Positions 26,401 through 58,477 of a DNA stretch of 64,000 nucleotides are shown in pieces. The stretch's first letter is position 1. Every line of letters starts with the position of its first letter. Under the pieces are notes generated by a model, which made no database searches, was not told the origin of the DNA, and worked only from the letters and a program-made list of their open reading frames with translations. The stretch spans positions 153,038 through 217,037 of the forward strand of contig NZ_JAMOIM010000008.1 in assembly GCF_026130545.1 (NCBI RefSeq), written 5' to 3'. The DNA comes from Lichenifustis flavocetrariae. Lineage in GTDB: Bacteria > Pseudomonadota > Alphaproteobacteria > Rhizobiales > Beijerinckiaceae. Made by a program: the position numbers and the translations under genes.

Positions 26401-29400
26401 GCGCCGAGTTGCGTCAGCGCCAACGCCGAAAGCTGGGTATCGGACAGACCGCTCAGTCCCGTCGCGGTCAATTTGGCGATCTGGGCTGTCCCTAGGCTCG
26501 CAAGCTGAGCGGTGCTGAGATCGGACACGAGCGACGTCGTGAGGCCTGAGATTCCGGACGTGCTGAGGGCGCCGATCTGCGTCGCGCTCATCGCCTGGAT
26601 CTGTGTATCCGCGAGTTGGCTCGCCTCGGTCATGGTCAGAGCCGAGACCTGGGTCGTCGTCAGAGCCGCCACCTGGGTCACGGCAAGTCCGCTGAGGCCG
26701 GTCGACGACAGGGCGGCGATCTGCTGAATGGAGAGCTGCGCGAGCTGTGTTTGCGAAAGGTTGGCGATCTGCGTGTCGACCAGCGTCCGCATCTGCGTGG
26801 TCGTCAGAGCGCCGATCTGCTGCGTGCTCAAGGCCGCAAGGGCGGACGGCGTGAGCGCCGTGATGCCGGTCACCGACAGTCCGGTGATCTGCTGGGTCGT
26901 GAGCGCGCCGATCTGCGTCGCGCTGAGTGAGGTCAGGGCTGTCGTGGCCAGGCCGCTGGCCGCCGTCGTGCTGATCGCGGCCACTTGCGTCGTGCTGAGG
27001 GCCGCGAGTTGCGTTTGGGTCAGTGCGCCGATGCTTGCCGAGGTCAGGGCGCCCAATTGTGTCGTGTTGAGCGCTGCCAGTAATGAAACCGTAAGGCCCG
27101 TGACGCCGGTGGTGGACAGCCCCGCGATCTGGGTGACGTTCAGGCTACTCAGTTGCGTGATGCTGAACGCGCCGATCTGGGTATCCACCAGACCGCTGAC
27201 GGCGCTTCGCGTCAGTCCGCTGAGTTGGACATTGGTCAGCGCGGCGATCTGGTCGCTGGTGAGCGCCGACGATTCCGTGCTGGTCAACCCCGACATCTGG
27301 GTGACGCTGAGCTGCCCGATCTGATCGAGGGTCAAACCGCCGATCTGCGTTGTCGTCATCGCGCCGATTTCGGCCGAGGTCAGCGATGCGAATTGCGTCA
27401 ACGACAGATTGCCGAGCGAGGTCGCGCTCAGGTTTGCGACCTGGGTCGCCGAAAGAGACTGGACCGCCAGGGCCTGGATCGTGGCCTGGCTCATATCCGT
27501 CAACTGCGTGGCCGTGAACCCGCGGATCTGCGCGCCCGTCAAACCGGTCAATTGGGCGGTCGTCAGCTCGGCGAGGGCGGTATCGCTCATCCCTGAGATC
27601 TGAGTGGCGGTGAGGCCGGCCAGTTGGGTCGTCGTGAAGGACTGGACCTGAGTGGCCGCCAGTCCGTTCAACACCGTGGTGCTCATGGCGGCGATTTGCG
27701 AGGCCGTGAGTGCCGAGAGCTGGCTTGCCGCGAAGGCGCCGATGCTGTCCGTGCCCAGGCCGGCGATCTGGCTGGTGGCGAGCCGGGATGCCGTCAGAGC
27801 CTGGAGCGACGTCGTCGACATATCGGCCAGCTGAACCGTCGAGAAACCGGCCATCTGGGCCGCCGTCAGCGCCGCGAGTTGCGTCGTCGTCAGTTCGGCG
27901 ATCGTCGTGTCGCTGAGCCCGGCGAGCTGCAGGGCTTGCAGGCCCGCCACTTGCGTGGTCGTCATGGCCTGGATCGCGGCGGCCGAGAGGTTGCTGAGAG
28001 ACGTGGTTGAGAGGGCGCCGACCTGCGTTGACGTCAGGGCCGCCAACTGGGCATCGGAGAGGTTCGCCAGGGCCGTGGCGCTCAGATTGGCGACCTGTGT
28101 TGTCGATAGGAATGAAGCCGGCAAAGCGTTGAGCGAGGACGGAGCCATGTCACTCAGCTGGGTTGACGTCAGCCCCTGTACTTGAGGCGCTGTCAGCCCG
28201 GACAGGAGTGTCGTCGTCAAAAGACCTAGCGTCGTATCGGTCATGTTGCCGAGTTGGCGCGGCGCCAGTCCGGCCGCCTGCGTGGTGGTCAGAGCCTGGA
28301 TCTCGGTCGGCGTCAGATTGTTCAAGACGTCGCTGCTCAAAGCGCCGATCTGCGCCGCGGACAGCGACGTGACCTGGTCACTCGTGAGATTGGCGACCGC
28401 CGTCGTGCTGAGGGAAGCGACCTGGATTGTGCTCAGCGATCCGACCGTGAGAGCCTGGATCATCTCGGCTGGCAAGTCGGTCAACTGGGTCGCGGTCAAT
28501 CCTCGGATCTGGCCGGTCGTGAAGGCCGCGATCTGGGCCGGCGTGAAGGCGGCCAGTGTGGCGTCGGTCAGGCCAGAGATCTGGGTTGAGGTGAGCGCCC
28601 CGGTCTGCGTGCTGGTCAGCGCTTGCACTTCGTCCGTTTGCAGCGCGTTGAGGGAAGGAATCGAGAGGGCCTGGACTTGTGCGGCCGACAAGCCGGCGAT
28701 CTGCGTCGCCGAAAGGTTGGCGAAGGCCGTCGACGACAATTGCCCGATCTGCGTTGCCGAGAATGTTGCGACCGGAATCGCCTGCATGGCGGCGGTCGAC
28801 AACCCCGAGAGCTGGTTCGGCGTCAGCCCACGCACTTGCTGGGTCGTCAGCGCGGCCATCTGGGTCGTCGTCAGTTCGGCAAGGCTCGTGCTGGTGAGAC
28901 CTGTGATTTGGCTCGCTGTGATCCCGGCTTCCTGCGTGGCGGTGAGCGCCTGCATTTCATCCTGCGACAGCGCATTGAGACCGGAAACCGACAAGGCCCC
29001 GACCTGGGTCGCGGCCAGCGAGGCGACCTGCGTGGAGGAGAGGTTCTGGACCTCTGTCGCGTTGAGACCCGACATTTGCGATGCGGTCAGATTGGCGGGA
29101 TCGAGCGCCAGGATCTGGTTCAGGAGCAGGCTGTTGAGTTGTGCGGTCGACAGGGTACCGACCTGCGTGGCGTTCAACTGGCCGAATTGCGTGGCCGTCA
29201 AATTCGACAGGGTCGTCGTGGACAGGCCGGCGATCTGGGGTCTGATCAACGCACTGAGTTGCTGGACACTGAGGGATTGAACTTCTCCCGGATCGAGCGA
29301 ATTCAGTTCCTGCGCCGACAACGCCGACATCTGGCTCGACGTGAAGGCCGAGAGATCGCTGGCGGCGAGCGCGTTGAAGGACGCCAGTGAGAGCCCGGAG

Positions 29401-29606
29401 AGAGCCGAGGGCGAGATGCCGCTCACCTGGTTTGCCGAAAGTGCTTCGAGATTGGTGGTGCTGAATTCGATCAGTTCGACCGAGGTCAGCGCCGCGACTT
29501 CCGTGGTTTCGAAGCTTTCGACGTCGCTGGTCGTGAATTGCTGGATGGTGGTCGCACTCAGCCGCGCGATCTGCGCTGCCGTCATCGACGAAAGGATCGA
29601 TGTCAT
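20475..29606 (-). CDS. Giant (3043 aa) Ser/Thr/Gln-rich protein composed of ~380 tandem octapeptide repeats
   Basis: Uninterrupted 9132-nt ORF. Translation is almost entirely 8-aa units such as ALTTTQIA / ALSTTQVG / GLTATQIS (consensus [AGS]L[ST][ST][ST]Q[IV][AG]). No N-terminal signal peptide, no Cys, almost no charged residues. Confidence 0.8.
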   Translation of the reverse strand: MTSILSSMTAAQIARLSATTIQQFTTSDVESFETTEVAALTSVELIEFSTTNLEALSANQVSGISPSALSGLSLASFNALAASDLSAFTSSQMSALSAQELNSLDPGEVQSLSVQQLSALIRPQIAGLSTTTLSNLTATQFGQLNATQVGTLSTAQLNSLLLNQILALDPANLTASQMSGLNATEVQNLSSTQVASLAATQVGALSVSGLNALSQDEMQALTATQEAGITASQITGLTSTSLAELTTTQMAALTTQQVRGLTPNQLSGLSTAAMQAIPVATFSATQIGQLSSTAFANLSATQIAGLSAAQVQALSIPSLNALQTDEVQALTSTQTGALTSTQISGLTDATLAAFTPAQIAAFTTGQIRGLTATQLTDLPAEMIQALTVGSLSTIQVASLSTTAVANLTSDQVTSLSAAQIGALSSDVLNNLTPTEIQALTTTQAAGLAPRQLGNMTDTTLGLLTTTLLSGLTAPQVQGLTSTQLSDMAPSSLNALPASFLSTTQVANLSATALANLSDAQLAALTSTQVGALSTTSLSNLSAAAIQAMTTTQVAGLQALQLAGLSDTTIAELTTTQLAALTAAQMAGFSTVQLADMSTTSLQALTASRLATSQIAGLGTDSIGAFAASQLSALTASQIAAMSTTVLNGLAATQVQSFTTTQLAGLTATQISGMSDTALAELTTAQLTGLTGAQIRGFTATQLTDMSQATIQALAVQSLSATQVANLSATSLGNLSLTQFASLTSAEIGAMTTTQIGGLTLDQIGQLSVTQMSGLTSTESSALTSDQIAALTNVQLSGLTRSAVSGLVDTQIGAFSITQLSSLNVTQIAGLSTTGVTGLTVSLLAALNTTQLGALTSASIGALTQTQLAALSTTQVAAISTTAASGLATTALTSLSATQIGALTTQQITGLSVTGITALTPSALAALSTQQIGALTTTQMRTLVDTQIANLSQTQLAQLSIQQIAALSSTGLSGLAVTQVAALTTTQVSALTMTEASQLADTQIQAMSATQIGALSTSGISGLTTSLVSDLSTAQLASLGTAQIAKLTATGLSGLSDTQLSALALTQLGALSSTQVAALTATQIGALTATQTAALTTVQVSSLSTSGIAGLTTDTVSALTTSQVGALTSTGLTAFALTQINALTPTQIAALTRSALAGLSQSQIATLTTTQVAALAATQIAALTTTAIAGLTSTELAALAATQLAALRTVQITALVDTQVASLSTSQLTSLYQSQVSALSTTGINGLDSSAIAALGGTQLGALTSTQVNSLDDTQVGALSTTQLGVLSTTQIAALSTTGLSGLTETLMGALSTTQLAALTTTEGQALGQTQIASLSTTQVASLGTRAVGGFATTAVSALSTTQLGALTTRQVAALSTTAVAALSTGAVAALSTQQISALTATQVKALADTQIASLSPAQLGQLSAQQIAALTSTGLSGLAVTQIGALTTTQVAALTATEVGQLADTQIEAMSPAQIGALTTSGISGLTASLVADLTITQLGNLATTQIARLSSSGVTGLTATQIGALTSTQLNALTPAQVGALGATQVAALTATQIGVLSAAQFAALSATGVGGFATSTIAALTTTQVAQLTAIELGGFAGTQIQSLTTTQIPSLSQTAVGGLNQTQVTALTSAQMAALTTTQVGALSVAGLQGLSSSDLMNLTTSQLTALRATQIKALLGTQVAALGTSQIAALLITQIAALSSTGLGGLTTSQIAAMATTQVAVLGSAQANALVDTQVAALSTSQIANLSPGQVASLSTTGISGLTATQVTSLSTTQVGALTATEAAALSGTQLAALSTTQVAALTTTAATALTPTELGQLTTSQIAALTTGQATALSTNSLPGLSTSAMQALNTTQLAALTPSQITALTDTQIGSLSATQLGQLSTQQIAALSATGLSGLTATQISGLTTTQVSALTAVEASAFAGTQLAALSAAQIAALSTSAISGLTQTLISQLSTTQLGNLTSTQVARISTAGIGGLTSTDIAALTLTQIGALTTTQIGALTDTQISAMTATQVGALTAAQAAALSTTGVSGLTTTTIAALTSTQIANLTVTEIGTLANTQIAALSTAQIQALTRTAMGGLNQTQVAALTTAQLSTLATTQISSLSAAAVSGFTSSELAGLSATQLGALGSTQVAALVDTQVAALSTGQLAALAASQIAGLSTTGLGGLSISDIAALTSTQIAALGTTQMDALADTQLGALTIGQLAALSSTQIAAIDPGAITGLTTTELAALSTTQVRGLTPTLLGAIGTTAISAFTATQVAAMNSAELGGLTNAQAAALTLTQIGALADTQVAALSTSAVSGLTTTELAALTITQVQALTATQMSALNDQQIVGLSAGQFGAFSSTQISGLSTTAIAALTTSEATGLTILQIRGLTSTQVGALSSQVVAALTTTQLGAFTTRGIAGLTQTQASALTASQFNALTTTQLAALSTAGVSGITTSQIAALTPDQLGALSSTQIGALSTVQMDAFTASEIAALTTTQAQGLTATQVSDLSAAQVAALTTTALRALSTTAVGGLTSTEIGLLSTTQLGAITSTQIAGLSTTALSGLSNAELAALTTTQFASLSATGIAALSSTQFAGLTTSQIALLSTTEMGGLTATQVGALTPTQLATLNATQIGALVTTGLSGLTSTQLGALSPNQLGALSSTQLSWLPTTAIAGLTLAEIGALTTTQLQGFNSTEIGALTSTQFAALTTTQLGLLTATEMSGFTSAEIATLSEDDLAALSATQIAALSTTGVAGLSQSQLASLSSTQVSALTATQMSALSTTAVSELTTTQIAALSSTQFSSLSASAISALTATQFASLNTTQIGLLSATEMSGLSATEIASLTTTQFAVLSATQIGGISSAAIAGLAPTALAALTSTQFAGLTAVQLQAFSSADVAALSTTQVAGLTASQLTGLARDQLRALSTSQLNALSASQIASLTTTQMVNLTTTELSGLTSTLFSALTPTQISGLSTLQLSNLGATTLAQLSAVQLSGLTTTQVSTLSTTTISNLTVTEIEALNGVQIAALTTTQTAVMTAAQLAALSEAAS
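20484..29590 (-). repeat. 24-nt-period tandem coding repeat array (~380 units)
   Basis: Nucleotide-level 24-bp periodicity underlying the octapeptide repeats. Every alternative frame on both strands also gives long periodic pseudo-ORFs. Confidence 0.85.
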
Positions 29607-30004
29607 GGCCCGCTCGCTTCCACCGTCTCAGACATTGTCGCCTCCGGTCACAACGTTACGAAACGTAAGTCGCCAGATGGCATCCCGTTTTCCTTTAGCG
29701 TCCCGGCATTGCGCGAAGCTGTCCTGCGCCTCGCGATGAGCCCAAAAGACGAAGCACGACCGAAGCGGTGCAGAACCGAATCGCGCGGCCACTATCGCGA
29801 CGCTCTCGCCGTCCAACAATACCCGGATTCTTCGAGCCGCAATCTTGTGCCGTTTGTCGCGGACACAACACGCTGCGGCCAATGCGATGGCCCCGGGGGA
29901 GTTCCTGCCATCAACGATTGCAGCGCCGGACCGAGAGATTGAGCGCGCCTGTAACGGCGACCCAGGCCAAGTGCGGCGGGAACAGGGTCGCGGCCAAGCT
30001 GACG
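29607..30004. promoter_or_regulatory. Divergent intergenic region between the giant repeat gene and a GNAT gene
   Basis: ~400 nt non-coding, lower GC than surroundings; must carry the promoter(s) of the repeat-protein operon and the divergent GNAT gene. Confidence 0.35.
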
Positions 30005-48253: not shown

Positions 48254-49357
48254 TCAGGCCGCGCGTTCCTCTCCGGGAAACAACGACAGGAGGCCGGCTT
48301 CTGAGGCGGCGCAGACGCCGCGCTCGGTGATCAGACCTGTCACAAGCCGGGCCGGCGTCACGTCGAAGCCGTAGTTGAGGGCAGGGCTGTTCTTCGGGGT
48401 GACACGGATCGTGGCGATGTCCCCTTCCGCGGTCTCGCCTGACATGTGGGTGACTTCCGTCGCCTCGCGTTCTTCGATCGGGATCTCCTTGACACCGTCG
48501 CGCATGCGCCAATCGATCGTCGAGGCCGGCAGGGCGACATAGAACGGTACGCCATTGTCGTGCGCCGCGAGCGCCTTGAGATAGGTGCCGACCTTGTTGC
48601 AAACGTCGCCGGTCCGCGTCGTGCGATCGGTGCCGACGATGCACAGATCCACCATCCCATGCTGCATGAGATGGCCGCCGACATTGTCGACCACGACCGT
48701 ATGCGGCACGCCCTCGCTGCCGAGCTCGTAGGCCGTCAGGCTGGCGCCTTGGTTGCGGGGCCGGGTCTCGTCCACCCAGACATGCACAGGCACGCCGGCG
48801 CGGTGGGCCTTGTAGACGGGGGCAAGCGCGGTGCCCCAATCGACTGTTGCGAGCCAACCGGCGTTACAATGGGTCAGCACGTTCACGGGCTGGCTGCGGC
48901 CCGTCCGGCGCCAGGCCGCAGCGATCAGTTCGGCGCCATGCTGGCCGAGCGCGGAGCAGACTGCGACATCCTCGTCGGCGATTGCGGCCGCCTCGGCATA
49001 GGCGGCGTTGCGACGCCGATCCGGAGCGATCGGGCCGAGATGACCACGCATGCGTTCGAGCGCCCAACGCAGGTTGACGGCCGTCGGGCGCGCCACCAGG
49101 AGCTGGTCGAAGGCACTCTGCAAATGGGCATCAGAGGGATCTTGGTTCATCGCAAGCGCGAGACCGTAGGCGCCCGCGGCGCCGATCAGCGGCGCCCCTC
49201 GGACGGTCATGTCGCGGATCGCGAGAGCCGCGTCCGTCGCGGAGTGCAGGGTCTTTATCGCGAACCTGTGCGGCAGGACCGTCTGATCGATGACGTTGAC
49301 CACGCGCGAGTCCCCATCACACCAAATGGTCCGGAATGCCGAGTCGCCGATCTTCAT
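48254..49357 (-). CDS. mtnA: S-methyl-5-thioribose-1-phosphate isomerase
   Basis: eIF-2B-like family: '[21 protein letters not shown]...[22 protein letters not shown]' and '[21 protein letters not shown]'. Confidence 0.85.
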
Positions 49358-49446: not shown

Positions 49447-51177
49447 TCAGGCCGCCAACGGCGTCCGCAACTTAAGCGCGATATCCCGCGCCTTTGGAAT
49501 AAAAACCACCGGAATGGCCTCGTTCAAACCGCGGACCTCCCGCTGTTCCGTGTGGAAGTCCGTGACATCGAGGCCAGCACAGGCGGCGACTTCCGCCGAC
49601 AAGGCGATCTGCACACCGGCAGCCTTGGCCATGGCTTCGAGCCGGCTCGCGACGTTCATGGCGAGTCCGATCACCGACAGGGATTGCGATTCGCGATAGC
49701 CGACCCGGCCCATCACGTGCGGTCCGGCGTGCAATCCCATGGCGATGCCGATGGGTGACTGCAGCTCATCGGCGATTTCTGCATTCAGGCTGGCGACCGC
49801 TTCGTCAATGCGCGAGGCCGCGAGCAGCGCAGCCCGGCATGCCGCGTCGAGACCGGATTCGCCCGAGAAAAGGGCGATCATGCCGTCGCCGGCATAATTG
49901 GAGATCCATCCGCCCATGTCATAGACGGGCTGCCCCACTGTGGCGAAGAACCGGTTGAGGATGAATACGACATCAAAGGGAAGCTTGCGCTCCGTAAGCG
50001 CCGTGAACCCGCGCATGTCGACAAACAGGACCGCAAGATCCTGCTCCACGCCGGAGGAGTCATCATGGGTAAGCTGTTGCGTGAGGGGATGTACGGGGTT
50101 CGGCGCGGCGCCGACGCGGAGAAGCGGCATGACGGTGACGTCGACCAGTGGCCGCGCCTGACAAGCCAGCCGAATGCCGGGGCCGGCCTTGATGGCTCGC
50201 AAAGTCGCCAACTCGGCCGGACCGGGTGGGCTCAATCCGCTCTGTGCCGTCATCACCAGCACGCGGCAGGTGGAGCAGCGCCCCCGTCCACCGCACACTG
50301 ACATGTGGGGAATGCCGTTCGCACGGCTGATCTCAAGCAGTGTCGGTCCGGCCTGGGTCTTGACCTGAGGGCCTGCCACATAGCGGACCAGCAGGTTTCG
50401 AGCCCGGCGCTGGAGCAGAAGGCGCAAAGCGATGCCGGCAAGGATGACCAAGATCAGCGCGAGTGTCGCGATCTGCGCGCGGTCACGCAATGTGGTGATG
50501 CGCGTCTGCGTCGCCGGATCGGGCCATTTGGTGTCGGCCTTGAAGGCCGCAAAGGATTTTGGCTCCGCAATGGCGGAACTGATGGCTCGCCCCTGGACCG
50601 AAATCCCCGTGAAAGCCGCGAAAGGCAGGAGAACCGCGAGCGCGAGAAGAACGGGCGTCGTGCGCTGATAAAAGGATGAGAGCCGAAGCCAGAAATGGAC
50701 GCCGATGCATCCGTGAATCCAGACGACCAACATGAGAACCGTCTGAATGTCGATGGCCGATGGCCAGATGCGCAGGAGTTCGTACGGATAGGTTGTGTTG
50801 ATGCCGAAGAGAACCGCCGAGACACGCGTGTTGACGATGTGCGGGACGAGAAGCACCGGGATCATGAGGCCGAGAGCGATTTGACCGGCCTCCCAGGCCG
50901 GCATCCTCAGCGTTCGGCGTCGCGATAATTTCATGATGGACAGGATCATGTGAGCGAGGAAAGCCGCGAGCAGAACGAGTGTACCGGGCACTGAACGGAT
51001 CACCGCGACGCGCCAGCCATCGAACGCGATCATGGCGTCGAGGCTGACAAGACCAAGCGCGTGGTTGAGAAAATGAGTGGCGGCAAACACGAACAGGATC
51101 AGGCCGGACGCGAGCCGGATCCGTTGCGTCGTGGAGCCGCGCCAAAGCACCTTCATCTGCGACCCCGCTTCATTCAT
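49447..51177 (-). CDS. Membrane-anchored class III adenylate/guanylate cyclase with internal 2Fe-2S ferredoxin domain
   Basis: N-terminal ~6 TM helices; plant-type ferredoxin cluster 'CGGRGRCSTCRV...LACQARP'; C-terminal CHD cyclase 'LAVLFVDMRGFTALTE...YAGDGMIALFSGE...LSVIGLAMNVASRLEAMAK'. Confidence 0.75.
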   Translation of the reverse strand: MNEAGSQMKVLWRGSTTQRIRLASGLILFVFAATHFLNHALGLVSLDAMIAFDGWRVAVIRSVPGTLVLLAAFLAHMILSIMKLSRRRTLRMPAWEAGQIALGLMIPVLLVPHIVNTRVSAVLFGINTTYPYELLRIWPSAIDIQTVLMLVVWIHGCIGVHFWLRLSSFYQRTTPVLLALAVLLPFAAFTGISVQGRAISSAIAEPKSFAAFKADTKWPDPATQTRITTLRDRAQIATLALILVILAGIALRLLLQRRARNLLVRYVAGPQVKTQAGPTLLEISRANGIPHMSVCGGRGRCSTCRVLVMTAQSGLSPPGPAELATLRAIKAGPGIRLACQARPLVDVTVMPLLRVGAAPNPVHPLTQQLTHDDSSGVEQDLAVLFVDMRGFTALTERKLPFDVVFILNRFFATVGQPVYDMGGWISNYAGDGMIALFSGESGLDAACRAALLAASRIDEAVASLNAEIADELQSPIGIAMGLHAGPHVMGRVGYRESQSLSVIGLAMNVASRLEAMAKAAGVQIALSAEVAACAGLDVTDFHTEQREVRGLNEAIPVVFIPKARDIALKLRTPLAA

Positions 51178-51336: not shown

Positions 51337-52737
51337 TTGACCGTACGGTCAGATTTCGGCCGTGAGGACCGGAGGGGTGCGATGGCTTATGCCTCGGACG
51401 GGATCGCCAGCCACCGGCTGCCGCCCGACGACTATGTCAGGAATTTTGCCGACCTGACGCCCCCTCTTTCCCGACACGAAGCAACCGTTGCGGCCGACCG
51501 CTGCTACTTCTGCTACGATGCGCCTTGCGCCCAGGCGTGCCCGACCCACATCGACATTCCGCTGTTCATCCGGCAGATCACCACCGCGAACCCGCATGGC
51601 GCGGCCGAGACCATTCTCGGCGCCAATATCATGGGCGGCATGTGCGCCCGCGTCTGTCCGGTGGAGCAACTCTGCGAAGAGGCCTGCGTGCGTGAGCATG
51701 CCGAAGGCAAGCCGGTGCAGATCGGGCTCCTCCAGCGCTACGCGACCGACACGCTGATGGCCGAGCGTGAGGGGCAGCCCTTCGTCCGGCAACCTGACAC
51801 CGGAAAAAGGATCGCTGTCGTTGGAGCAGGCCCGGCGGGTCTCTCCTGCGCGCACCGGCTCGCGATGCTCGGCCACGGTGTGACCGTGTTCGACGCCAAG
51901 CCGAAGGCGGGCGGCCTCAATGAATACGGCATCGCCACCTACAAGACCACGAACGACTTTGCCCAGCGCGAGGTCGACTTCATCCTGTCGATCGGGGGCA
52001 TCTCGGTCGAAACCGGCAAGGCGCTCGGACGCGACGTCACTCTCACCCAATTGCAGGCCGATTACGATGCCGTTTTCCTCGGCATGGGCCTCGCGGGCTT
52101 CAACAGCCTGAGCGGGATGCCGGAATTCGCGCAGGTCACCGATGCGGTGCCGTTCATCGAGGAGCTGCGGCAGGCGTCCGACAAGGCCACCGTTCCCGTT
52201 GGCCGTAAGGTGGTGGTGATCGGGGGCGGCATGACGGCCATCGATGCCGCCGTGCAGGCCAAGAAGCTTGGAGCCGAAGAGGTCACCATCGCGTACCGGC
52301 GTGGACCGGAGCACATGAAGGCGAGCCAGTTCGAGCAGGATTTAGCCAAGACGAGTGGGGTCACGATCCGGCATTGGGCCGTCCCCAAAAGTTTTGATGG
52401 CACCGATGGCCGGTTGACGACGGTCCTGTTCGATCATGCCCCACCCGGCCTGAACGGCCCGCCCGAGACCGTCGCGATCCAGGCCGACATGGTCTTGGCT
52501 GCGATCGGTCAGAGCCTGTTCGACGAACCGCTCGGGCGAACGGTGGCGCTCTCTGGGGGCCGTATCGTGGTCGACGCGGAGCGGCGCACCTCGCATACGG
52601 GCGTTTGGGCGGGCGGCGACTGCGTGTTCGGCGGCCAGGACCTCACGGTCGCGGCAGTCGAGGACGGCAAACAGGCGGCTCTGTCGATCGATCGGTTCCT
52701 GCGCGGCGCGCAGGCTCTTCCTCAAGCGGCGGAGTGA
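51337..52737 (+). CDS. preT: NAD-dependent dihydropyrimidine dehydrogenase subunit PreT (GltD-like)
   Basis: N-terminal Fe-S cysteines 'CYFCYDAPCAQACPTHIDIP...GMCARVCPVEQLCEEAC', FAD/NAD Rossmann 'RIAVVGAGPAGLSCAH'. Possible alternative start at 51382. Confidence 0.85.
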   Translation: MTVRSDFGREDRRGAMAYASDGIASHRLPPDDYVRNFADLTPPLSRHEATVAADRCYFCYDAPCAQACPTHIDIPLFIRQITTANPHGAAETILGANIMGGMCARVCPVEQLCEEACVREHAEGKPVQIGLLQRYATDTLMAEREGQPFVRQPDTGKRIAVVGAGPAGLSCAHRLAMLGHGVTVFDAKPKAGGLNEYGIATYKTTNDFAQREVDFILSIGGISVETGKALGRDVTLTQLQADYDAVFLGMGLAGFNSLSGMPEFAQVTDAVPFIEELRQASDKATVPVGRKVVVIGGGMTAIDAAVQAKKLGAEEVTIAYRRGPEHMKASQFEQDLAKTSGVTIRHWAVPKSFDGTDGRLTTVLFDHAPPGLNGPPETVAIQADMVLAAIGQSLFDEPLGRTVALSGGRIVVDAERRTSHTGVWAGGDCVFGGQDLTVAAVEDGKQAALSIDRFLRGAQALPQAAE

Positions 52738-52742
52738 CGCCC

Positions 52743-54056
52743 ATGGCCGACCTGTCGACCAATTTCCTTGGCATCAAATCCCCGAACCCGTTCTGGCTCG
52801 CCTCGGCGCCGCCGACCGACCGCTACGTCAATGTGACCCGCGCCTTCAAGGCCGGATGGGGCGGCGTCGTCTGGAAGACGCTCGGCGAGGACCCGCCAGT
52901 CGTCAATGTGTCGGGCCCCCGCTATGGCGCGATCCATGGAGCAGATCGACGTTTGATCGGGCTGAACAATATCGAATTGATCACCGACCGGCCGCTCGCG
53001 ATCAACCTGCAGGAGATCAAGCAGGTGAAGCGGGAGTTCCCCGACCGGGCCATGGTGGTCTCGATCATGGTGCCCTGCGAGGAAAAGAGCTGGGCGCACA
53101 TCCTGCCGATGATCGAGGAGACGGGCGCCGACGGCATCGAGCTGAACTTCGGCTGTCCGCATGGGATGTCCGAGCGAGGGATGGGATCGGCCGTGGGTCA
53201 GGTCCCCGAATATATCGAGATGGTGGCGCGCTGGTGCAAGCACTACACCCGCATGCCCGTGATCGTGAAGCTGACCCCGAACATCACCGACATCCGCCGA
53301 CCGGCCCGTGCCGCCAAGGCGGGCGGCGCCGATGCGGTGTCGCTGATCAATACCATCAATTCCGTGATGGGTGTCGACCTCGACCGCATGTGCCCGAGCC
53401 CGCATGTCGACGGCAAGGGCACGCACGGCGGCTATTGCGGCCCGGCCGTGAAGCCGATCGCGCTCAGCATGGTCAGCGAAATCGCGCGCGACGCCGAGAC
53501 ACAGGGACTACCGATCTCGGCCATCGGTGGGATCACAACTTGGCGCGACGCGGCCGAGTTCATCGCCATGGGCGCAGGCACCGTCCAGGTCTGCACCGCT
53601 GCGATGACCTACGGCTTCAAGATCGTCGAGGAGATGATCACCGGGCTCAAGAGTTGGATGGATGCCAAGGGCTACGCCTCTCTTGATGAGTTTCGGGGCA
53701 GGGCGGTCGGCAACACCACCGACTGGCAATACCTGAACCTGAACTATGTCGTGAAGGCCCGCATCGATCAGGATCTCTGCATCAAATGTGGGCGATGCCA
53801 TATCGTCTGCGAGGATACCTCGCATCAGGCGATCTGGCCCATCGTCGACGGGGTGCGCAAATTCGTGGTGAACGACGCGGAATGCGTCGGCTGCAATCTC
53901 TGCGCGGATGTTTGCCCGGTCGAAGGCTGCATCACCATGGAGCACCAGACCGAGGGCACCGACCCGCGCACCGGCCTGCGGTATGACCGGCCCTACGCCA
54001 ACTGGACCACCCATCCCAACAATCCGGCCTCGACGGTGAAGATCGCGGCGGAGTAA
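52743..54056 (+). CDS. preA: Dihydropyrimidine dehydrogenase subunit PreA (DHOD-like TIM barrel + 2x[4Fe-4S])
   Basis: From Met 'MADLSTNFLGIKSPNPFWLASAPP': 'IELNFGCPHGM' resembles the DHOD active site; C-terminal ferredoxin motifs 'CIKCGRCHIVC' and 'CVGCNLCADVCP'. Confidence 0.85.
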   Translation: MADLSTNFLGIKSPNPFWLASAPPTDRYVNVTRAFKAGWGGVVWKTLGEDPPVVNVSGPRYGAIHGADRRLIGLNNIELITDRPLAINLQEIKQVKREFPDRAMVVSIMVPCEEKSWAHILPMIEETGADGIELNFGCPHGMSERGMGSAVGQVPEYIEMVARWCKHYTRMPVIVKLTPNITDIRRPARAAKAGGADAVSLINTINSVMGVDLDRMCPSPHVDGKGTHGGYCGPAVKPIALSMVSEIARDAETQGLPISAIGGITTWRDAAEFIAMGAGTVQVCTAAMTYGFKIVEEMITGLKSWMDAKGYASLDEFRGRAVGNTTDWQYLNLNYVVKARIDQDLCIKCGRCHIVCEDTSHQAIWPIVDGVRKFVVNDAECVGCNLCADVCPVEGCITMEHQTEGTDPRTGLRYDRPYANWTTHPNNPASTVKIAAE

Positions 54057-54195
54057 GGCCCGTTCCCCGTGCGAAATCGTGATGGCCGCGCCTGTCGCGG
54101 TCACGCGCGCCTCGGAGATCAACCGAACGGGCGTCGCCCAGGCTGCGTGGATGCCCGGCTCAAGGCCGGGCATCACAACTGGAGAGGGCGGGATG

Positions 54196-54714
54196 TCAGT
54201 GCTCTTTCGGCAGAACTTCGATCTTCAGCGTTTGGGTTGCCGCGTCGCTGATTTCGACGGTGGCCGGGCCAACCTTCAGATCAAAGCGCACACTTTTGTG
54301 GATGGCTTTGCACGTATGGCTGCCCGTGAACCCGACCTGTTTCACGATCTTGCCATCCTGAACGACATCGACCCAGGCATCATCCGATAACGTGACCTGG
54401 TAGGTGTCGGCCGAAGCGATGGGCGGCAGCGCGAACGTGCCCGCATAGGCGGGATCGTGCTTCGGATGATGGGTGGGAGCCACCGGAAAAGCGACGCCAT
54501 CCTGCTTGCCGAGTTGCAGGTTCGCGGCTTCCATGAGACCAGGCAGCGGTGTCCCGTTGACGACGGTCGGGAGCCCTTCCGCCGCGAAAGCCGTGGTTTC
54601 CCGTGTCAGCGGCCACTTAAAATCAGAGCAATCGGTCTGCTGCGCGGCGGCCGGCAAGGTCGTGATCAGAGCAAGCGCGACAGCGACGCCGGCTCGGAGA
54701 GAAGTCAATTGCAT
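54196..54714 (-). CDS. Secreted hypothetical protein
   Basis: Signal peptide 'MQLTSLRAGVAVALALITTLPAAAQ'; 2 Cys; no recognisable family. Confidence 0.45.
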   Translation of the reverse strand: MQLTSLRAGVAVALALITTLPAAAQQTDCSDFKWPLTRETTAFAAEGLPTVVNGTPLPGLMEAANLQLGKQDGVAFPVAPTHHPKHDPAYAGTFALPPIASADTYQVTLSDDAWVDVVQDGKIVKQVGFTGSHTCKAIHKSVRFDLKVGPATVEISDAATQTLKIEVLPKEH

Positions 54715-54920
54715 CAGTCCACCGCAACCATGACGTCCGACGCCTTGATGACCGCATAGGCATCCTGGCCCGGTTTCAACCCGAGGTCGTCGACGGCCTC
54801 ATTGGTGATCGAGGCCGTCACGATCGTCCCACCGACATCGATGCGAACGTGCGACGTTGTCTGCCCCTTGGTGACCTCAACGACCTTTCCCTTGAGCTGA
54901 TTGCGGGCACTGAGACGCAT
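54714..54920 (-). CDS. mop: Molybdopterin/molybdate-binding TOBE-domain protein (Mop)
   Basis: 68 aa; 'RNQLKGKVVEV...VRIDVGGTIVTASIT...GLKPGQDAYAVIKASDVMV' is the classic Mop/TOBE fold sequence. Confidence 0.8.
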   Translation of the reverse strand: MRLSARNQLKGKVVEVTKGQTTSHVRIDVGGTIVTASITNEAVDDLGLKPGQDAYAVIKASDVMVAVD

Positions 54921-55010
54921 GTATTTTCCTCACTCACGATGGGCTTGTCGCTCGACTTCCGTCGCGCGCGCCCGGCAAGCTTAACAGGCGCTTCGGATGA
55001 TGGGAATGTC

Positions 55011-55646
55011 TCACCCCTTCGGGCCAGGACGCAGCACGCCGGCAGTGATGAGCTCGACCACCTGACGTTTCGCTGTGTTGAAATCTTCGTCACTCAAGGG
55101 ATCGCCACCGTTCAACGTCGTGATCTGGTGCGCGAAATCGGCGTAATGCTGCGTCGTCGCCCAGATCATATACAACAGCGTCTTCGGCTCGATCGGCTTC
55201 AGTGCCCCGGCCGCGATCCACTTTTGCACGATGCTGCCGCGGGACTCGACCCATTGCCGGAGCGTGGTGTCCAGGAAGTCCTGGATCTCCGGCGCACCGC
55301 GCAGAATCTCGCTGGCGAAGATGCGGGAGCCCTGGGGCCGCTGCCGCGCGAGATCCATCTTGGCCGCGATGTAGCGACCGAGGGCTTCGGCCGGATCACT
55401 GCTGCTCTCGAATGTACCGGCCGCCGACAGCCACGCATTGAGCACGCCGGCGAGCACACGCCGGTAAAGCTCGGCTTTGGTCGCGAAATAATAATGCAGG
55501 TTCGCCTTCGGCAGTCCTGCGCGGGCCGCGATCTCGGCCATGGTGGCGCCATCGAAACCGCGTTCGGCAAACACCGCCTCGGCAGCGAGAAGAATGCTGT
55601 CTTCATGTGCGGCCCGGATCGATGAAGACACTCGCACCTTGCCCAT
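55011..55646 (-). CDS. TetR-family transcriptional regulator (RutR-like pyrimidine-utilisation regulator)
   Basis: HTH 'ILLAAEAVFAERGFDGATMAEIAARAGLPKANLHYYFATKAELY'; divergent to the pyrimidine-catabolic genes. Confidence 0.75.
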   Translation of the reverse strand: MGKVRVSSSIRAAHEDSILLAAEAVFAERGFDGATMAEIAARAGLPKANLHYYFATKAELYRRVLAGVLNAWLSAAGTFESSSDPAEALGRYIAAKMDLARQRPQGSRIFASEILRGAPEIQDFLDTTLRQWVESRGSIVQKWIAAGALKPIEPKTLLYMIWATTQHYADFAHQITTLNGGDPLSDEDFNTAKRQVVELITAGVLRPGPKG

Positions 55647-55768
55647 AATTTCTGCGGTCGACCCTTGGCCATGATGCGGAAAACAGCCGAGCGACAGTTT
55701 GACCAAGCGGTCAGAAAGACGCTAGTTTTTGCTGCCATCGCATCATCGCGACGAGCCCACAAGAGGCC

Positions 55769-57019
55769 TTGATGTCCGACCTCTCCAACATCCGTATCGA
55801 CGGCGCTCGGCTATGGGACAGCCTGATGGAGATGGCCAAGATCGGCGGCACCGAGAGGGGTGGCTGCCGGCGCCTCACGCTCACGGACGTGGATAAACAG
55901 GGACGCGAGCTCTTCGCTCGGTGGTGCGAGGAGGCGGGCCTGGCGCTGGCGGTCGACGACATGGGCAACATGTTCGCGCGGCGGCCCGGCGAAGACGACA
56001 GCGTCGCCCCCGTGATGATGGGGAGCCATCTCGATACCCAGCCGACCGGCGGCAAATTCGACGGCGTTCTCGGCGTGCTGGGGGCCCTCGAAGTGGTCCG
56101 GTCCCTGAACGACCTCAAGATCAAAACCAAGCGCCCGATCGAGATCGCCAATTGGACGAATGAAGAAGGATCCCGTTACGCGCCCGCGATGGTCTCTTCG
56201 GGCGTCTTTGCAGGGGCCTATACCAAAGACTTCGCCTATAATCTCACCGATGCCGAAGGGCTGAAGTTTGGCGACGAACTCGAGCGCATCGGCTTCAAGG
56301 GAAGCGAGCCTGTGGGCCAGCGTCCGATCCACGCTTTTTTCGAGCTGCATATCGAACAAGGCCCCATTCTGGAGGACGAAGCGATCGATGTCGGCATCGT
56401 CACGCACGGGCAGGGGCAGCGCTGGTTCGAAGTGACGCTGACGGGCTTCGAGAGCCATGCGGGCTCCACACCGATGCCGCGTCGCAAGGATGCGCTGCTC
56501 GGCGCCGCGCGGGTGGTCGAGCTCGTGAACGGTCTCGGTCTCGCGCATCCGCCGCTCGCCATGGCGACGTGCGGCATGCTCAATCCGTACCCGAACAGCC
56601 GCAACGTCATCCCCGGTCAAGTCTTCCTGACCTGCGAGTTTCGCCACCCCGATGCCTCTGTCCTCGATGCGATGGACCATGCACTGCGGGAAGGCATCGC
56701 CCGGATCGCCAAGGAGATCGGCCTCGAAGTCGACCTCAAGAAGGTGTTCGACTACCCGCCCGTGCCCTTCGACGCGAGCTGCATCGCCGCGGTGCGGCGG
56801 GGCGCGGAAAAGTTCTGCTACAGTCATCGCGACATCGTGTCGGGTGCCGGGCACGATGCCTGTTACATTTCCCGCGTGGCACCCACCTCGATGATCTTCA
56901 CGCCTTGCGTCGACGGTGTCAGCCACAACGAATTGGAAGACATCAAGCCCGAATGGGCAACGGCAGGCACGCAGGTGCTGATGCATGCCGTGCTGGAGAA
57001 AGCCGAGATCGTCGGCTGA
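55769..57019 (+). CDS. M20-family Zn amidohydrolase (beta-ureidopropionase / N-carbamoyl-amino-acid / allantoate amidohydrolase family)
   Basis: 'MGSHLDTQPTGGKFDGVLGVLGALEVVRSL...IANWTNEEGSRYAPAMVSSGV' matches the AmaB/AllC family metal-binding blocks. Confidence 0.8.
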   Translation: MMSDLSNIRIDGARLWDSLMEMAKIGGTERGGCRRLTLTDVDKQGRELFARWCEEAGLALAVDDMGNMFARRPGEDDSVAPVMMGSHLDTQPTGGKFDGVLGVLGALEVVRSLNDLKIKTKRPIEIANWTNEEGSRYAPAMVSSGVFAGAYTKDFAYNLTDAEGLKFGDELERIGFKGSEPVGQRPIHAFFELHIEQGPILEDEAIDVGIVTHGQGQRWFEVTLTGFESHAGSTPMPRRKDALLGAARVVELVNGLGLAHPPLAMATCGMLNPYPNSRNVIPGQVFLTCEFRHPDASVLDAMDHALREGIARIAKEIGLEVDLKKVFDYPPVPFDASCIAAVRRGAEKFCYSHRDIVSGAGHDACYISRVAPTSMIFTPCVDGVSHNELEDIKPEWATAGTQVLMHAVLEKAEIVG

Positions 57020-57049
57020 ACGGCAACCTGCGGAACAACGGAGTTATCC

Positions 57050-58477
57050 ATGTCGCTGGTCATCAAGGGAGGCACGGTCGTGACGGCCGACAGGACGTTC
57101 GCGGCCGATGTGCTGATCGAGGGCGAGACCATCGCGGCCGTGGGCTCGGGTCTCAGCGGCGACACGGTGGTGGATGCCGCCGGCTGTTTCGTCATGCCGG
57201 GCGGCATCGACCCGCACACCCATCTCGAAATGCCTTTCATGGGCACGACCACGGTCGATGATTACGAGACCGGTACCAAGGCGGCGCTATCTGGCGGCAC
57301 CACAATGGTGGTGGATTTCTGCATCCCCAACCACGGCCAGTCCTTGATGGATGCGATGGCGGACTGGGACCGGCGCGGCGAGGGTGCGGCGGCCGACTAC
57401 TCTTTCCACATGGCGATTTCCGAGTGGAACGAGCGCGTCAACGAAGAGATGACCAAGGTGGTGGCGCGTGGCGTGACGACCTTCAAATATTTCATGGCCT
57501 ACAAGGGCGCCCTCATGGTCGATGACGCGCAGATGTTCGCGTCGTTCCAACGCTGTGCCGAACTCGGCGCCATGCCGCTCGTCCATGCCGAGAATGGCGA
57601 TGTCGTTGCGGCGCTGCAGCAGCATTACATGGCGATCGGCATCACCGGCCCCGAGGCGCACGCCTATTCGCGGCCGCCGGATGTGGAGGGTGAGGCGGCG
57701 AACCGTGCCATCATGCTGGCCGATCAGGCCGGCGTGCCGCTCTACATCGTCCACACCTCCTGCATCCCTGCTCACGAGGCGATCAAGCGGGCGCGGGCGC
57801 TTGGCAAACGCGTCTATGGTGAGCCCCTGATCCAGCATCTGACCCTCGACGAGAGCGAGTATTTCCACCCTGATTGGGACCATGCCGCCCGCCGGGTGAT
57901 GTCGCCACCCTTCCGGGCCAAGCATCATCAGGACGACCTCTGGGCTGGCCTGCAATCGGGCTCCTTGCAGGTCGTTGCGACCGACCATTGCGCCTTCATG
58001 ACGGACCAGAAGCGCTTCGGGCGCGAGGATTTCACCAAGATTCCCAACGGGACCGGCGGGTTGGAAGACCGCATGCCGGTGCTCTGGACAAAGGGCGTGA
58101 ACACCGGTCGCCTGACCATGCAGGAATTCGTGGCGGTCTCCTCGACCAACATTGCCAAAATCCTGAACCTCTATCCGCGAAAGGGCGCCATTGCGGTCGG
58201 CGCCGATGCCGACATCGTGGTCTGGGACCCGAAGGCGACCAAGACCATCTCGGCCAAAACACAGAAATCGGCCATCGACTACAACGTCTTTGAGGGAATC
58301 TCCTGCGAAGGGCTGCCGCGTGTGACGCTGTCGCGGGGTGAGATCGCCTACAAGGAGGGCGAGGTGCTGGCCAAGCGGGGCAGGGGCAAATTCATCGCCC
58401 GCGAGCCCTTCCCGGCGGTCGCCAAGGCGATCAAGCGGTGGAAACAGGAAACGGCGCCCAAGAAGATCGCGCGGTAG
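57050..58477 (+). CDS. Dihydropyrimidinase (D-hydantoinase)
   Basis: 'GGIDPHTHLEMPFMGT' metal-binding HxH, carboxylated-Lys region 'FKYFMAYKGALMVDD', 'VATDHC'; cyclic amidohydrolase family. Confidence 0.9.
   Translation: MSLVIKGGTVVTADRTFAADVLIEGETIAAVGSGLSGDTVVDAAGCFVMPGGIDPHTHLEMPFMGTTTVDDYETGTKAALSGGTTMVVDFCIPNHGQSLMDAMADWDRRGEGAAADYSFHMAISEWNERVNEEMTKVVARGVTTFKYFMAYKGALMVDDAQMFASFQRCAELGAMPLVHAENGDVVAALQQHYMAIGITGPEAHAYSRPPDVEGEAANRAIMLADQAGVPLYIVHTSCIPAHEAIKRARALGKRVYGEPLIQHLTLDESEYFHPDWDHAARRVMSPPFRAKHHQDDLWAGLQSGSLQVVATDHCAFMTDQKRFGREDFTKIPNGTGGLEDRMPVLWTKGVNTGRLTMQEFVAVSSTNIAKILNLYPRKGAIAVGADADIVVWDPKATKTISAKTQKSAIDYNVFEGISCEGLPRVTLSRGEIAYKEGEVLAKRGRGKFIAREPFPAVAKAIKRWKQETAPKKIAR

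Follow-up and report, generated by a model that had tools for sequence, protein, structure and literature searches.

Class IIIb cyclases in which a ferredoxin domain is placed between a cytochrome-b-like anchor of six transmembrane helices (6TM) and the catalytic domain were described as 'Cluster 1' by Beltz et al. 2016 (eLife 5:e13098), a set of 30 sequences from alpha- and beta-proteobacteria, exemplified by Rhodopseudomonas palustris Q132R4, with four spaced intramembrane histidines and two predicted haems; the anchors were said to match the cytochrome b of SDH/FRD 'by simple BLAST'. S. meliloti CyaC (SMc01818) was presented by Wissig et al. 2019 (Mol Microbiol 112:16), as relayed in PMC10463352 and PMC9552081, as a quinone-responsive di-haem-B/[2Fe-2S] class III adenylate cyclase. 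According to these later accounts, haem B is oxidised or reduced by ubiquinone and thereby changes cyclase activity, the oxidised form being active and the reduced form inactive, and the variant CyaC(K410A T484A) is enzymatically silent; CyaC is also reported to bind transcription regulators physically (PMC10463352). With regard to substrate choice, adenylate cyclases carry the pair Lys/Asp and guanylate cyclases the pair Glu/Cys at the same two positions, and swapping the pair converts specificity (PMC2576301).

Here, we analyzed a 64,000-nucleotide stretch of DNA from Lichenifustis flavocetrariae (the window), which encodes a protein that as a whole very probably belongs to the CyaC family of class III nucleotide cyclases, of the redox-sensing haem/iron-sulfur type. 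The CyaC-type architecture itself is already known and widespread; the new point is a sub-branch of the family that lacks the usual ATP-recognising Lys.

The gene, its family and its neighbourhood

The bounds given in the first-pass annotation (49447-51177) are exactly those found in the ORF list, on the minus strand, and the 576-residue product is 100% identical to an NCBI protein from L. flavocetrariae (Hyphomicrobiales; P0001). Met8 (51154-51156) may be the true start, as homolog N-termini and the pairwise alignment start there. The codon-position GC (0.65/0.48/0.76) is typical of the adjoining genes, and a spurious or foreign ORF was rejected on this ground. The protein is organized as follows:

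49447-51177, minus strand: probable CyaC-type membrane nucleotide cyclase, whole gene (ORF list, Pfam, identical NCBI protein)
50398-51177, minus strand: N-terminal domain of six TM helices (aa 1-260), predicted to be a di-haem cytochrome b folded like the type-B anchors of succinate:quinone oxidoreductases
51049-51132, minus strand: TM1
50920-50991, minus strand: TM2
50806-50898, minus strand: TM3
50686-50754, minus strand: TM4
50572-50676, minus strand: TM5
50404-50517, minus strand: TM6
50125-50397, minus strand: Fer2 [2Fe-2S] domain (aa 261-351; Pfam PF00111, NqrF-like match, invariant Cys)
50050-50124, minus strand: linker (aa 352-376; AF2 full-length model, alignment columns)
49498-50049, minus strand: class III nucleotide cyclase catalytic domain (aa 377-560; Pfam PF00211, PDB cyclase matches)

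This architecture had been called uncommon and not functionally characterised in the first-pass annotation. Neither description holds: the class was described by Beltz et al. and CyaC was characterised by Wissig et al., a relative is encoded in at least 546 species-level genomes, 7,999 of the 8,000 scored database clusters reach E ≤ 1e-20, and the TM domain alone is matched by 2,460 representatives at 50% identity. In both size and taxonomic range, the family goes well beyond the 30 sequences first reported, and also includes Methylomirabilota/Rokubacteria, Nitrospinota, Verrucomicrobiia and Binatia MAGs. In the genome scan, Sinorhizobium is absent among the best 80 of the at least 546 relative loci, and no named Sinorhizobium protein came up when a 'Rhizobiaceae' MAG homolog served as the query of a database search; the published CyaC numbering of K410/T484/N491/R495 is matched exactly by 53 of 240 family members. 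Standalone TM domains with other outputs were considered and rejected, the matches of odd length being TM plus Fer2 fragments or a degenerate full-length homolog. In P0267, a degenerate member of the family, the catalytic Asn is gone and an OmpA-like domain has been added.

The genes flanking the cyclase are:

48254-49357, minus strand: IF-2B family gene (MtnA-like sugar-phosphate isomerase; Pfam PF01008, E 1.4e-58)
51337-52737, plus strand: preT-like dihydropyrimidine dehydrogenase gene (Pfam)
52743-54056, plus strand: preA-like dihydropyrimidine dehydrogenase gene (Pfam)

The IF-2B gene starts 89 bp past the cyclase stop on the same strand, an arrangement kept in the close relatives L082, L083 and L087. 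Divergent preT/preA genes accompany the cyclase in 4/4 Asn-type relatives examined, and the neighbourhoods are wholly different in Methylobacterium, the Asp-type clade and Lys-type members. A scan for promoters and terminators around the cyclase gene gave nothing above the shuffled expectation, the 64,000-nt window holds no CRP/Clr-like cNMP receptor and no second cyclase, and no frdA/B or sdhA/B genes were found next to the cyclase.

The predicted haem anchor and the ferredoxin domain

Six hydrophobic helices, as claimed for the N-terminal domain, are seen both by hydropathy and in two AlphaFold models (AF2 helices at aa 16-43, 63-86, 94-124, 142-164, 168-202 and 221-258, pLDDT 82-90), but the reading of this domain as a plain anchor missed a predicted di-haem cytochrome b with invariant histidines:

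51073-51075, minus strand: His35 (TM1), putative axial ligand to the distal haem (periplasmic side), conserved in 316 of 318 homologs, with gaps in the remaining 2
50950-50952, minus strand: His76 (TM2), putative axial ligand to the proximal haem (cytoplasmic side), conserved in 318 of 318 homologs
50839-50841, minus strand: His113 (TM3), predicted distal-haem ligand, in 318 of 318 homologs
50713-50715, minus strand: His155 (TM4), predicted proximal-haem ligand, in 318 of 318 homologs

His35 lies 19 residues from the cytoplasmic start of TM1, with His113 of TM3 at equal depth, and His76 lies 13 residues from the periplasmic start of TM2, with His155 of TM4 at equal depth; the periplasmic-side haem would sit between His35 and His113, and the cytoplasmic-side haem between His76 and His155. 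The tetra-His signature on TM helices, as in the anchors of di-haem succinate:quinone oxidoreductases, is present, and at the structure level the anchor model is a clear fold match to quinone-reactive di-haem cytochrome b subunits. At the sequence level, neither phmmer with the TM domain nor a profile of 16 TM-domain homologs recovered anything relevant from the PDB, and NCBIfam (including TIGR02046) and Pfam gave no cytochrome b match to the TM domain at E ≤ 10. Aligned by hhalign to Wolinella FrdC (the sequence used is 100% identical to 1qlb_C), the TM profile gave a probability of 1.8% and an out-of-register TM3-to-TM1 match; therefore, the His-to-ligand correspondence is not demonstrable by sequence, and the haem assignment is made on the predicted fold and the invariant His. 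A haem-based gas sensor is held unlikely, as four invariant His would imply two six-coordinate bis-His haems.

A ferredoxin module between the 6TM and catalytic domains is borne out by a Fer2 (PF00111) match at aa 273-343 (E 1e-7; 32.1 bits against a cut-off of 21) and by four cysteines (Cys295/301/304 at 50266-50295 and Cys339 at 50161-50163, minus strand), each conserved in 317-318 of 318 homologs. As had been noted, the protein contains the motif CGGRGRCSTCRV...LACQ, but with the spacing Cx5Cx2Cx34C, not Cx4Cx2C. The label 'plant-type' applies in the loose sense of the Fer2 superfamily, but the Cx4Cx2C...x29...C spacing and a closest similarity to plant or cyanobacterial ferredoxins are both lacking: among solved structures, the Fer2 module taken alone comes nearest to GcoB reductase, terpredoxin/putidaredoxin/adrenodoxin and NqrF, and the matches at E ≤ 1 include no classical ferredoxin of plants or cyanobacteria. 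In the AF2 model, Fer2 is joined almost directly to TM6, with the helix ending at 258 and the first strand running from 261. The linker that follows (aa 352-376) is non-helical in the full-length AF2 model, with pLDDT <50 at 353-363 and 372-375; its alignment columns are gapped and vary in length and sequence, making it the least conserved of all regions, and no coiled coil, S-helix or cyclase-transducer element was found in it. Two CyaC-family members, P0056 and P0097, are mis-named 'NqrF' in databases.

The catalytic domain and the lysine-less clade

The class III cyclase domain of the first-pass annotation is confirmed by a Guanylate_cyc (PF00211) match at aa 379-546 (E 2e-11; 44.3 bits against a cut-off of 21.9), by PDB cyclase matches reaching E 2.9e-16, and by metal-binding and transition-state residues (Asp387, Asp431, Asn508 and Arg512) conserved in 308-318 of 318 homologs:

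50017-50019, minus strand: metal Asp387
49885-49887, minus strand: metal Asp431
49654-49656, minus strand: transition-state Asn508
49642-49644, minus strand: transition-state Arg512
49897-49899, minus strand: Asn427, at the substrate-binding Lys position (CyaC Lys410; +17 offset, HMMER alignment with the bPAC Lys)
49675-49677, minus strand: Ser501, at the CyaC Thr484 position, second residue of the substrate pair (family alignment)

The canonical pair of class IIIb adenylate cyclases, a Lys at position -4 from the second metal Asp and a Thr at position -7 from the catalytic Asn, is replaced here by Asn427/Ser501. Lys/Thr is found in 204 of 318 family members, each at most 52% identical to the Lichenifustis protein. 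Across the 318 homologs, position 427 is K in 207, G in 45, D in 28, N in 26, Q in 11 and R in 1, and position 501 is T in 219 and S in 94. A Lys-less clade of 98 sequences is monophyletic, with N/D/G at 427 and the co-switches T501S and G479A (Ser at 501 in 91 of the 98, versus Thr in 204 of the 207 of the Lys clade), from Lichenihabitantaceae, Methylobacterium and some Burkholderiaceae MAGs. Asp387, Arg389, Asp431 and Asn508 are kept in all 98 and Arg512 in 97, and the mean column conservation of the cyclase domain is 0.73 in the Lys-less clade versus 0.66 in the Lys clade, in a biased sample. With all of its other catalytic residues kept, the Lys-less cyclase domain is probably still an enzyme.

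We propose that the protein is a homodimer of the inner membrane, in which each subunit would consist of a six-helix cytochrome b-type anchor with two bis-His haem B, a cytoplasmic [2Fe-2S] domain and a C-terminal cyclase. The haems would equilibrate with the respiratory quinone/quinol pool, as demonstrated for S. meliloti CyaC. Together with the [2Fe-2S] cluster next to it, the proximal haem may form a short redox wire with a geometry like that of fumarate reductase haem bP and its nearest Fe-S cluster. The redox state of this module would then alter the pairing of the cyclase domains, the oxidised form being active and the reduced form inactive if the direction is that of CyaC. Because the Fer2-cyclase linker is flexible and contains no helical transducer, the signal would pass through domain contacts or dimer geometry. 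The output would be a cyclic nucleotide, most likely cAMP, but with less certainty than in CyaC, since Asn stands in place of the adenine-binding Lys in this protein and the Lys is replaced throughout the sub-clade.

Alternative readings and comparison with known systems

On computation and homology, a CyaC-type redox-gated cyclase is the best explanation of this locus, and we hold it with high, though not full, confidence. The cyclase gating by redox or respiratory state suggested in the first-pass annotation agrees with the published accounts of CyaC (PMC10463352; PMC9552081), but the sensor had been placed in the Fe-S cluster, and in those accounts the demonstrated sensor is the di-haem-B membrane anchor. 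We consider it improbable that the [2Fe-2S] cluster is the primary sensor, responding by a one-electron change or, in the manner of SoxR or IscR, by oxidative, NO or iron-limited cluster damage, with the haems only a conduit or structural. The four Cys equal the His in conservation, Fer2 is placed directly between the anchor and the catalytic domain, and the CyaC cluster is, in the CyaC literature as represented by PMC10463352, only drawn in a scheme and given no defined role. However, a purely cytoplasmic Fe-S sensor would not need a conserved four-His, two-haem anchor with a quinone-reductase fold, and single His mutations in CyaC reportedly abolish both haem and activity. The stated basis of CyaC redox sensitivity is the reaction of haem B with ubiquinone (PMC10463352). 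That the haem-haem-FeS chain is a working quinol:acceptor oxidoreductase with a cytoplasmic partner, so that the cyclase reports electron flux and not the quinone pool's equilibrium redox poise, seems very improbable. It would fit with an anchor folded like a catalytic quinone-reactive subunit, with the likeness of TM6 and Fer2 to the membrane-anchored electron-input module of NqrF, and with the divergent preT/preA genes of the Asn-type relatives, which encode a NADH-dependent Fe-S flavoenzyme; yet the protein has no flavin or NAD(P)H-binding domain, no partner is conserved family-wide, the neighbourhoods differ, and the preT/preA synteny may be merely inherited.

The remaining readings concern what the catalytic domain does. 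A changed or relaxed specificity of the Lys-less sub-clade (Asn/Asp/Gly 427, Ser 501), giving cGMP or mixed cyclic nucleotides instead of cAMP specifically, is unlikely, and it is likewise unlikely that the branch, from a single origin, couples the quinone-redox module to other or broader cyclic nucleotides, e.g. cGMP. The monophyly of the clade with its co-switches, the retention of the remaining catalytic residues and the converting effect of pair swaps (PMC2576301) would fit such a change, and Asp/Ser or Asn/Ser is chemically nearer to the guanylate pair than Lys/Thr. However, known guanylate cyclases have Glu, which is longer than Asp or Asn, the Gly at 427 in Methylobacterium is unable to hydrogen-bond any base, and the N/D/G variation looks like relaxed constraint rather than a new specific contact; moreover, no cGMP-specific receptor was found nearby, and Rv1900c, with Asn at the Lys position, is still an adenylate cyclase. 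It is distinctly improbable that the cyclase domain is catalytically crippled and the protein acts mainly as a redox-dependent scaffold, a partner of regulators or a redox protein. The silence of CyaC(K410A T484A), as reported, in a protein that binds transcription regulators, the natural loss of that Lys in the Lichenifustis protein and the existence of degenerate members such as P0267 are compatible with this reading, but the retention of the catalytic residues in 97-98 of the 98 Lys-less sequences is hard to explain without catalysis, their cyclase domain is conserved at least as much as that of the Lys clade in the biased sample, and the CyaC mutant has both residues changed to Ala, while Asn and Ser can still hydrogen-bond.

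For a CyaC-type redox-gated cyclase, these results mean that a clear fold match can support the haem-anchor assignment even when searches by sequence find nothing, and that a single clade, about one third of the sampled family, no longer has a Lys held essential for ATP recognition while keeping the rest of the catalytic set. If active, the clade would be a natural experiment on nucleotide selection by class III cyclases and a direct means of studying what the [2Fe-2S] cluster does, and, if its product is not cAMP, a respiratory-state-gated synthase of a non-cAMP second messenger in Alphaproteobacteria; if inactive, the Lys-less proteins would be redox-dependent scaffolds. In either case, the CyaC model is refined, not overturned.

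Compared with the cytochrome b chains of Wolinella succinogenes FrdC (1e7p/1qlb chain C), D. gigas QFR (5xmj_C) and b558-family SDH (9lay_C), the likeness is one of fold and ligand pattern only, with 13-15% sequence identity and no significant profile match. Unlike a type-B cytochrome b subunit, the cyclase anchor has a sixth TM helix; its Fe-S partner is a fused [2Fe-2S] ferredoxin domain rather than a separate three-cluster FrdB/SdhB, and there is no flavoprotein, the output being a cyclase. TM6 with Fer2 (aa 238-343) resembles the N-terminal module of NqrF of Na+-NQR, one TM helix plus Fer2 (TIGR01941 positions 10-112, E 2.9e-9; NqrF chains 8a1t_F and 7xk3_F are also matched), and shares its Cx5Cx2C spacing, but the 36 bits against the NqrF model are far under the 295-bit cut-off, and the cyclase lacks the FAD/NADH-binding domain and lies outside any nqr operon. 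In M. tuberculosis, the adenylate cyclase Rv1900c has the substrate pair Asn/Asp and Rv0386 has Gln/Asn; as in the Lichenifustis cyclase, an amide replaces the adenine-binding Lys and the metal and transition-state residues are kept, but both enzymes have an unrelated domain layout, soluble or differently anchored, without a haem or Fe-S module. The Lichenifustis protein has exactly the Cluster 1 architecture of Beltz et al., the four spaced intramembrane His included, with a likeness to cytochrome b at the fold level only, their BLAST match not being reproduced for its anchor. It differs from CyaC in Asn427/Ser501 versus Lys410/Thr484 and in a gene not adjoined by the LysR and TetR (CycR) regulator genes found at S. 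meliloti cyaC; the residues K410/T484/N491/R495 of CyaC, taken from its published numbering, correspond to 427/501/508/512 with a constant offset of +17. Both proteins come from Hyphomicrobiales alphaproteobacteria, and they have in common the 6TM haem anchor, the [2Fe-2S] domain and the class III catalytic domain, together with the tetra-His signature and the four Cys.

The cyclase gene and its place in the CyaC family

The cyclase gene lies exactly where the first-pass annotation placed it, and the arrangement of a 6-TM domain, a ferredoxin-like module and a class III cyclase is borne out by Pfam, hydropathy and two AlphaFold models. At 0.65/0.48/0.76, the codon-position GC of the gene is close to the values of its neighbours, indicating a native coding gene. 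An NCBI entry from Lichenifustis flavocetrariae (Alphaproteobacteria, Hyphomicrobiales, Lichenihabitantaceae) matches the product at 100% identity and bears no annotation beyond 'adenylate/guanylate cyclase domain-containing protein'.

49447..51177, minus strand: cyclase gene, 576 aa (ORF list)
51154-51156, minus strand: possible alternative start Met8, the position where most homologs begin (MxVLWRGS...)
aa 273-343: Fer2 domain (Pfam 32.1 bits, cut-off 21)
aa 379-546: Guanylate_cyc domain (Pfam 44.3 bits, cut-off 21.9)

A GGGA sits ~7 nt upstream of the Met8 ATG; this Met may be the real start, in which case the annotated start at 51177 would be 7 codons too far upstream. Hydropathy and both models give 6 TM helices, and solved class III cyclases match the cyclase domain (best E 2.9e-16), where the two metal Asp and the Asn/Arg pair are present. 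The cysteine motif quoted previously is found in Fer2 (Cys295, 301, 304 and 339), but its spacing is Cx5Cx2C...x34...C rather than Cx4Cx2C. The label 'plant-type' holds only loosely, at the level of the Fer2 superfamily: for the module alone, the nearest proteins are the GcoB reductase ferredoxin domain, terpredoxin/putidaredoxin/adrenodoxin and NqrF, with no classical plant ferredoxin among its matches at E<=1. With these two details corrected, the first-pass observation is confirmed in substance.

All architectural features of CyaC-type enzymes (6TM, tetra-His, Fer2 with four Cys, class III domain) are found in the protein. Compared via the published CyaC residue numbers, Lys410, Thr484, Asn491 and Arg495 correspond to 427, 501, 508 and 512 at one constant offset, and 53 of the 240 family members retrieved carry exactly the published numbering, which is the modal one. 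We conclude that the observation is real and that an explanation for it already exists: the window protein is a predicted redox-regulated class III cyclase of the CyaC family.

Although the architecture had been described as uncommon and not functionally characterised, it is common, and one member, S. meliloti CyaC (SMc01818), has been characterised by experiment, reportedly by Wissig et al. in 2019. In a scan of one genome per species, at least 546 genomes encode a relative, with representatives in Alphaproteobacteria, Burkholderiales, Methylomirabilota/Rokubacteria, Nitrospinota, Verrucomicrobiia and Binatia MAGs. Two word-indexed searches, each scoring the best 8,000 candidates, returned at least 7,544 matches at E<=1e-5 and at least 7,999 at E<=1e-20; Fer2 and cyclase domains occur together in 239 of the 240 matches listed (the best 120 from each search). 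When a TM-domain profile was searched exhaustively, 2,460 representatives at 50% identity matched it (619 with E<=1e-30), and the matches of odd length are TM+Fer2 fragments plus one 827-aa full-length homolog. The 827-aa metagenomic homolog (P0267) shares 39% identity with the window protein over aa 8-566 of the latter. It has a degenerate cyclase domain with the catalytic Asn replaced and an OmpA-like domain added C-terminally, and may derive from the redox module without being catalytic itself.

A sub-clade without the adenine-binding lysine

What remains novel, judging from sequence comparison, is that the window protein belongs to a sub-clade of single origin that lacks the canonical adenine-binding Lys.

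49897-49899, minus strand: Asn427 codon
49675-49677, minus strand: Ser501 codon

Asn427, four residues before the second metal Asp, aligns with the bPAC Lys and CyaC Lys410, and Ser501 occupies the position of CyaC Thr484; CyaC(K410A T484A) is enzymatically silent. The 427/501 pair is Lys/Thr in 204 of 318 family sequences, and within this set every sequence >52% identical to the window protein is without Lys at 427, the pairs being Asn/Ser (22), Asp/Ser (25), Gly/Ser (45) and a few variants. In neighbour-joining analysis, one clade contains precisely the Lys-less sequences (98 of 317 sampled, a share that is overestimated because the sample was seeded with the window protein). Asp387, Arg389, Asp431 and Asn508 are kept in 98/98 of them and Arg512 in 97/98, while Thr501 to Ser and Gly479 to Ala switch along with the loss of Lys. 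A separate set (n=11) carries Gln/Thr and comes mainly from Methylomirabilota/Rokubacteria, with single MAGs from Burkholderiales, Rhodoferax, Nitrospinota, Verrucomicrobiia and Dormiibacterota.

One loss of Lys, free variation at 427 and strict retention of the catalytic machinery suggest a still-active enzyme that would recognise the purine differently or less specifically. A shifted nucleotide specificity of the clade is conceivable, since guanylate cyclases carry Glu/Cys at the positions equivalent to 427/501 (PMC2576301), but residue 427 is Gly in Methylobacterium, which speaks against a newly formed specific contact. Because the canonical adenine-binding Lys is absent, the product and activity of the window protein are uncertain, and it is a reasonable target for a nucleotide-specificity study.

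Gene neighbourhood

On one side of the cyclase gene lies a sugar-uptake/catabolism cluster (ABC transporter, ROK kinase, DeoC aldolase, LacI, DeoR, IF-2B/MtnA-like) and on the other a reductive pyrimidine-catabolism cluster (preT, preA, M20 amidohydrolase, dihydropyrimidinase-like).

48254-49357, minus strand: IF-2B family gene
51337-58474, plus strand: apparent reductive pyrimidine-degradation cluster
51337-54056, plus strand: preT-like gene and preA-like gene (the latter with DHO_dh plus 4Fe-4S dicluster)
55703-57016, plus strand: M20 amidohydrolase
57020-58474, plus strand: dihydropyrimidinase-like amidohydrolase

Neither the LysR nor the TetR regulator found beside S. meliloti cyaC is present at the window cyclase locus, and there is no CRP-like gene within the window. 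The block in which preT and preA diverge from the cyclase gene is kept in 4/4 Asn-type relatives examined (loci L082, L083, L086 and L087; 55-66% identical), three of which also have the IF-2B gene downstream of the cyclase, and their outer flanks differ. The same block is absent in the Asp-, Gly- and Lys-type members examined. The block may have persisted simply as inherited synteny, or because regulation acts through the intergenic region common to preT and the cyclase gene, which is 159 bp in the window.

In relatives, a RutR-like TetR regulator adjoins the pyrimidine-degradation cluster. Two loci of canonical Lys/Thr members (L084 and L085; proteins P0144 and P0145) have their own conserved upstream neighbourhood in common (polysaccharide deacetylase, small unknown ORF, CobW-family GTPase, 3-hydroxyacyl-CoA dehydrogenase), which differs from both the window locus and the S. 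meliloti cyaC locus. Elsewhere in the window, a 3,050-aa ORF at 20478-29627 (minus strand; GC3 0.84), made up for the most part of ALTTAQ repeats (Pfam PF20080, E 5.9e-295), has a giant repeat protein as its predicted product; over the same 10 kb or so, the plus strand shows strong positive GC skew.

Membrane domain and proposed assembly

The membrane domain, previously taken as a plain anchor, is more than that. Six of its His are invariant in an alignment of 21 homologs; over 318 family sequences His35, His76, His113 and His155 are invariant in 316-318, with His39 and His161 conserved slightly less. In the structure models TM1-TM4 carry these four at two matched depths: counted from the cytoplasmic end of the helix, both His35 and His113 come 19 residues in, and counted from the periplasmic end, both His76 and His155 come 13 residues in. 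Two bis-His haems, one above the other in the membrane, would be expected to give this pattern. This architecture is already in the literature, where two haems were predicted for it (Beltz et al. 2016, eLife 5:e13098). For CyaC, ubiquinone is reported to oxidise and reduce haem B, with a resulting change in cyclase activity (PMC10463352, PMC9552081). The redox-gated cyclase that had been proposed is essentially the published mechanism, except that the demonstrated sensor in CyaC is the haem anchor.

The two haems would equilibrate with the quinone pool, as shown for CyaC. According to the models, helix 221-258 (TM6) leads into Fer2, whose first strand begins at residue 261; this junction would keep the [2Fe-2S] cluster at the membrane surface on the cytoplasmic side, beside the proximal haem (His76/His155). 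The Fer2-cyclase linker (aa 352-376) is modelled as non-helical at low confidence, varies in length and sequence in the alignment and contains no coiled-coil transducer, so that the redox signal would have to pass to the catalytic dimer by way of contacts between domains or altered dimer geometry; the full-length model (pTM 0.52) does not define the domain arrangement.

Some homologs (P0056, P0097) are mis-named 'NqrF' in public databases. TM6 together with Fer2 (aa 238-343; 50404-50517 plus 50125-50397, minus strand) resembles the N-terminal TM-helix-plus-[2Fe-2S] module of NqrF, matching TIGR01941 (E 2.9e-9) and the PDB entries 8a1t_F and 7xk3_F, and the predicted placing of the [2Fe-2S] cluster is like that of the nearest Fe-S centre of FrdB/SdhB, which lies over haem bP. 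These likenesses suggest a composite origin for the window protein, with an NqrF-like anchored ferredoxin linking a cyclase to a five-helix FrdC-like cytochrome b.
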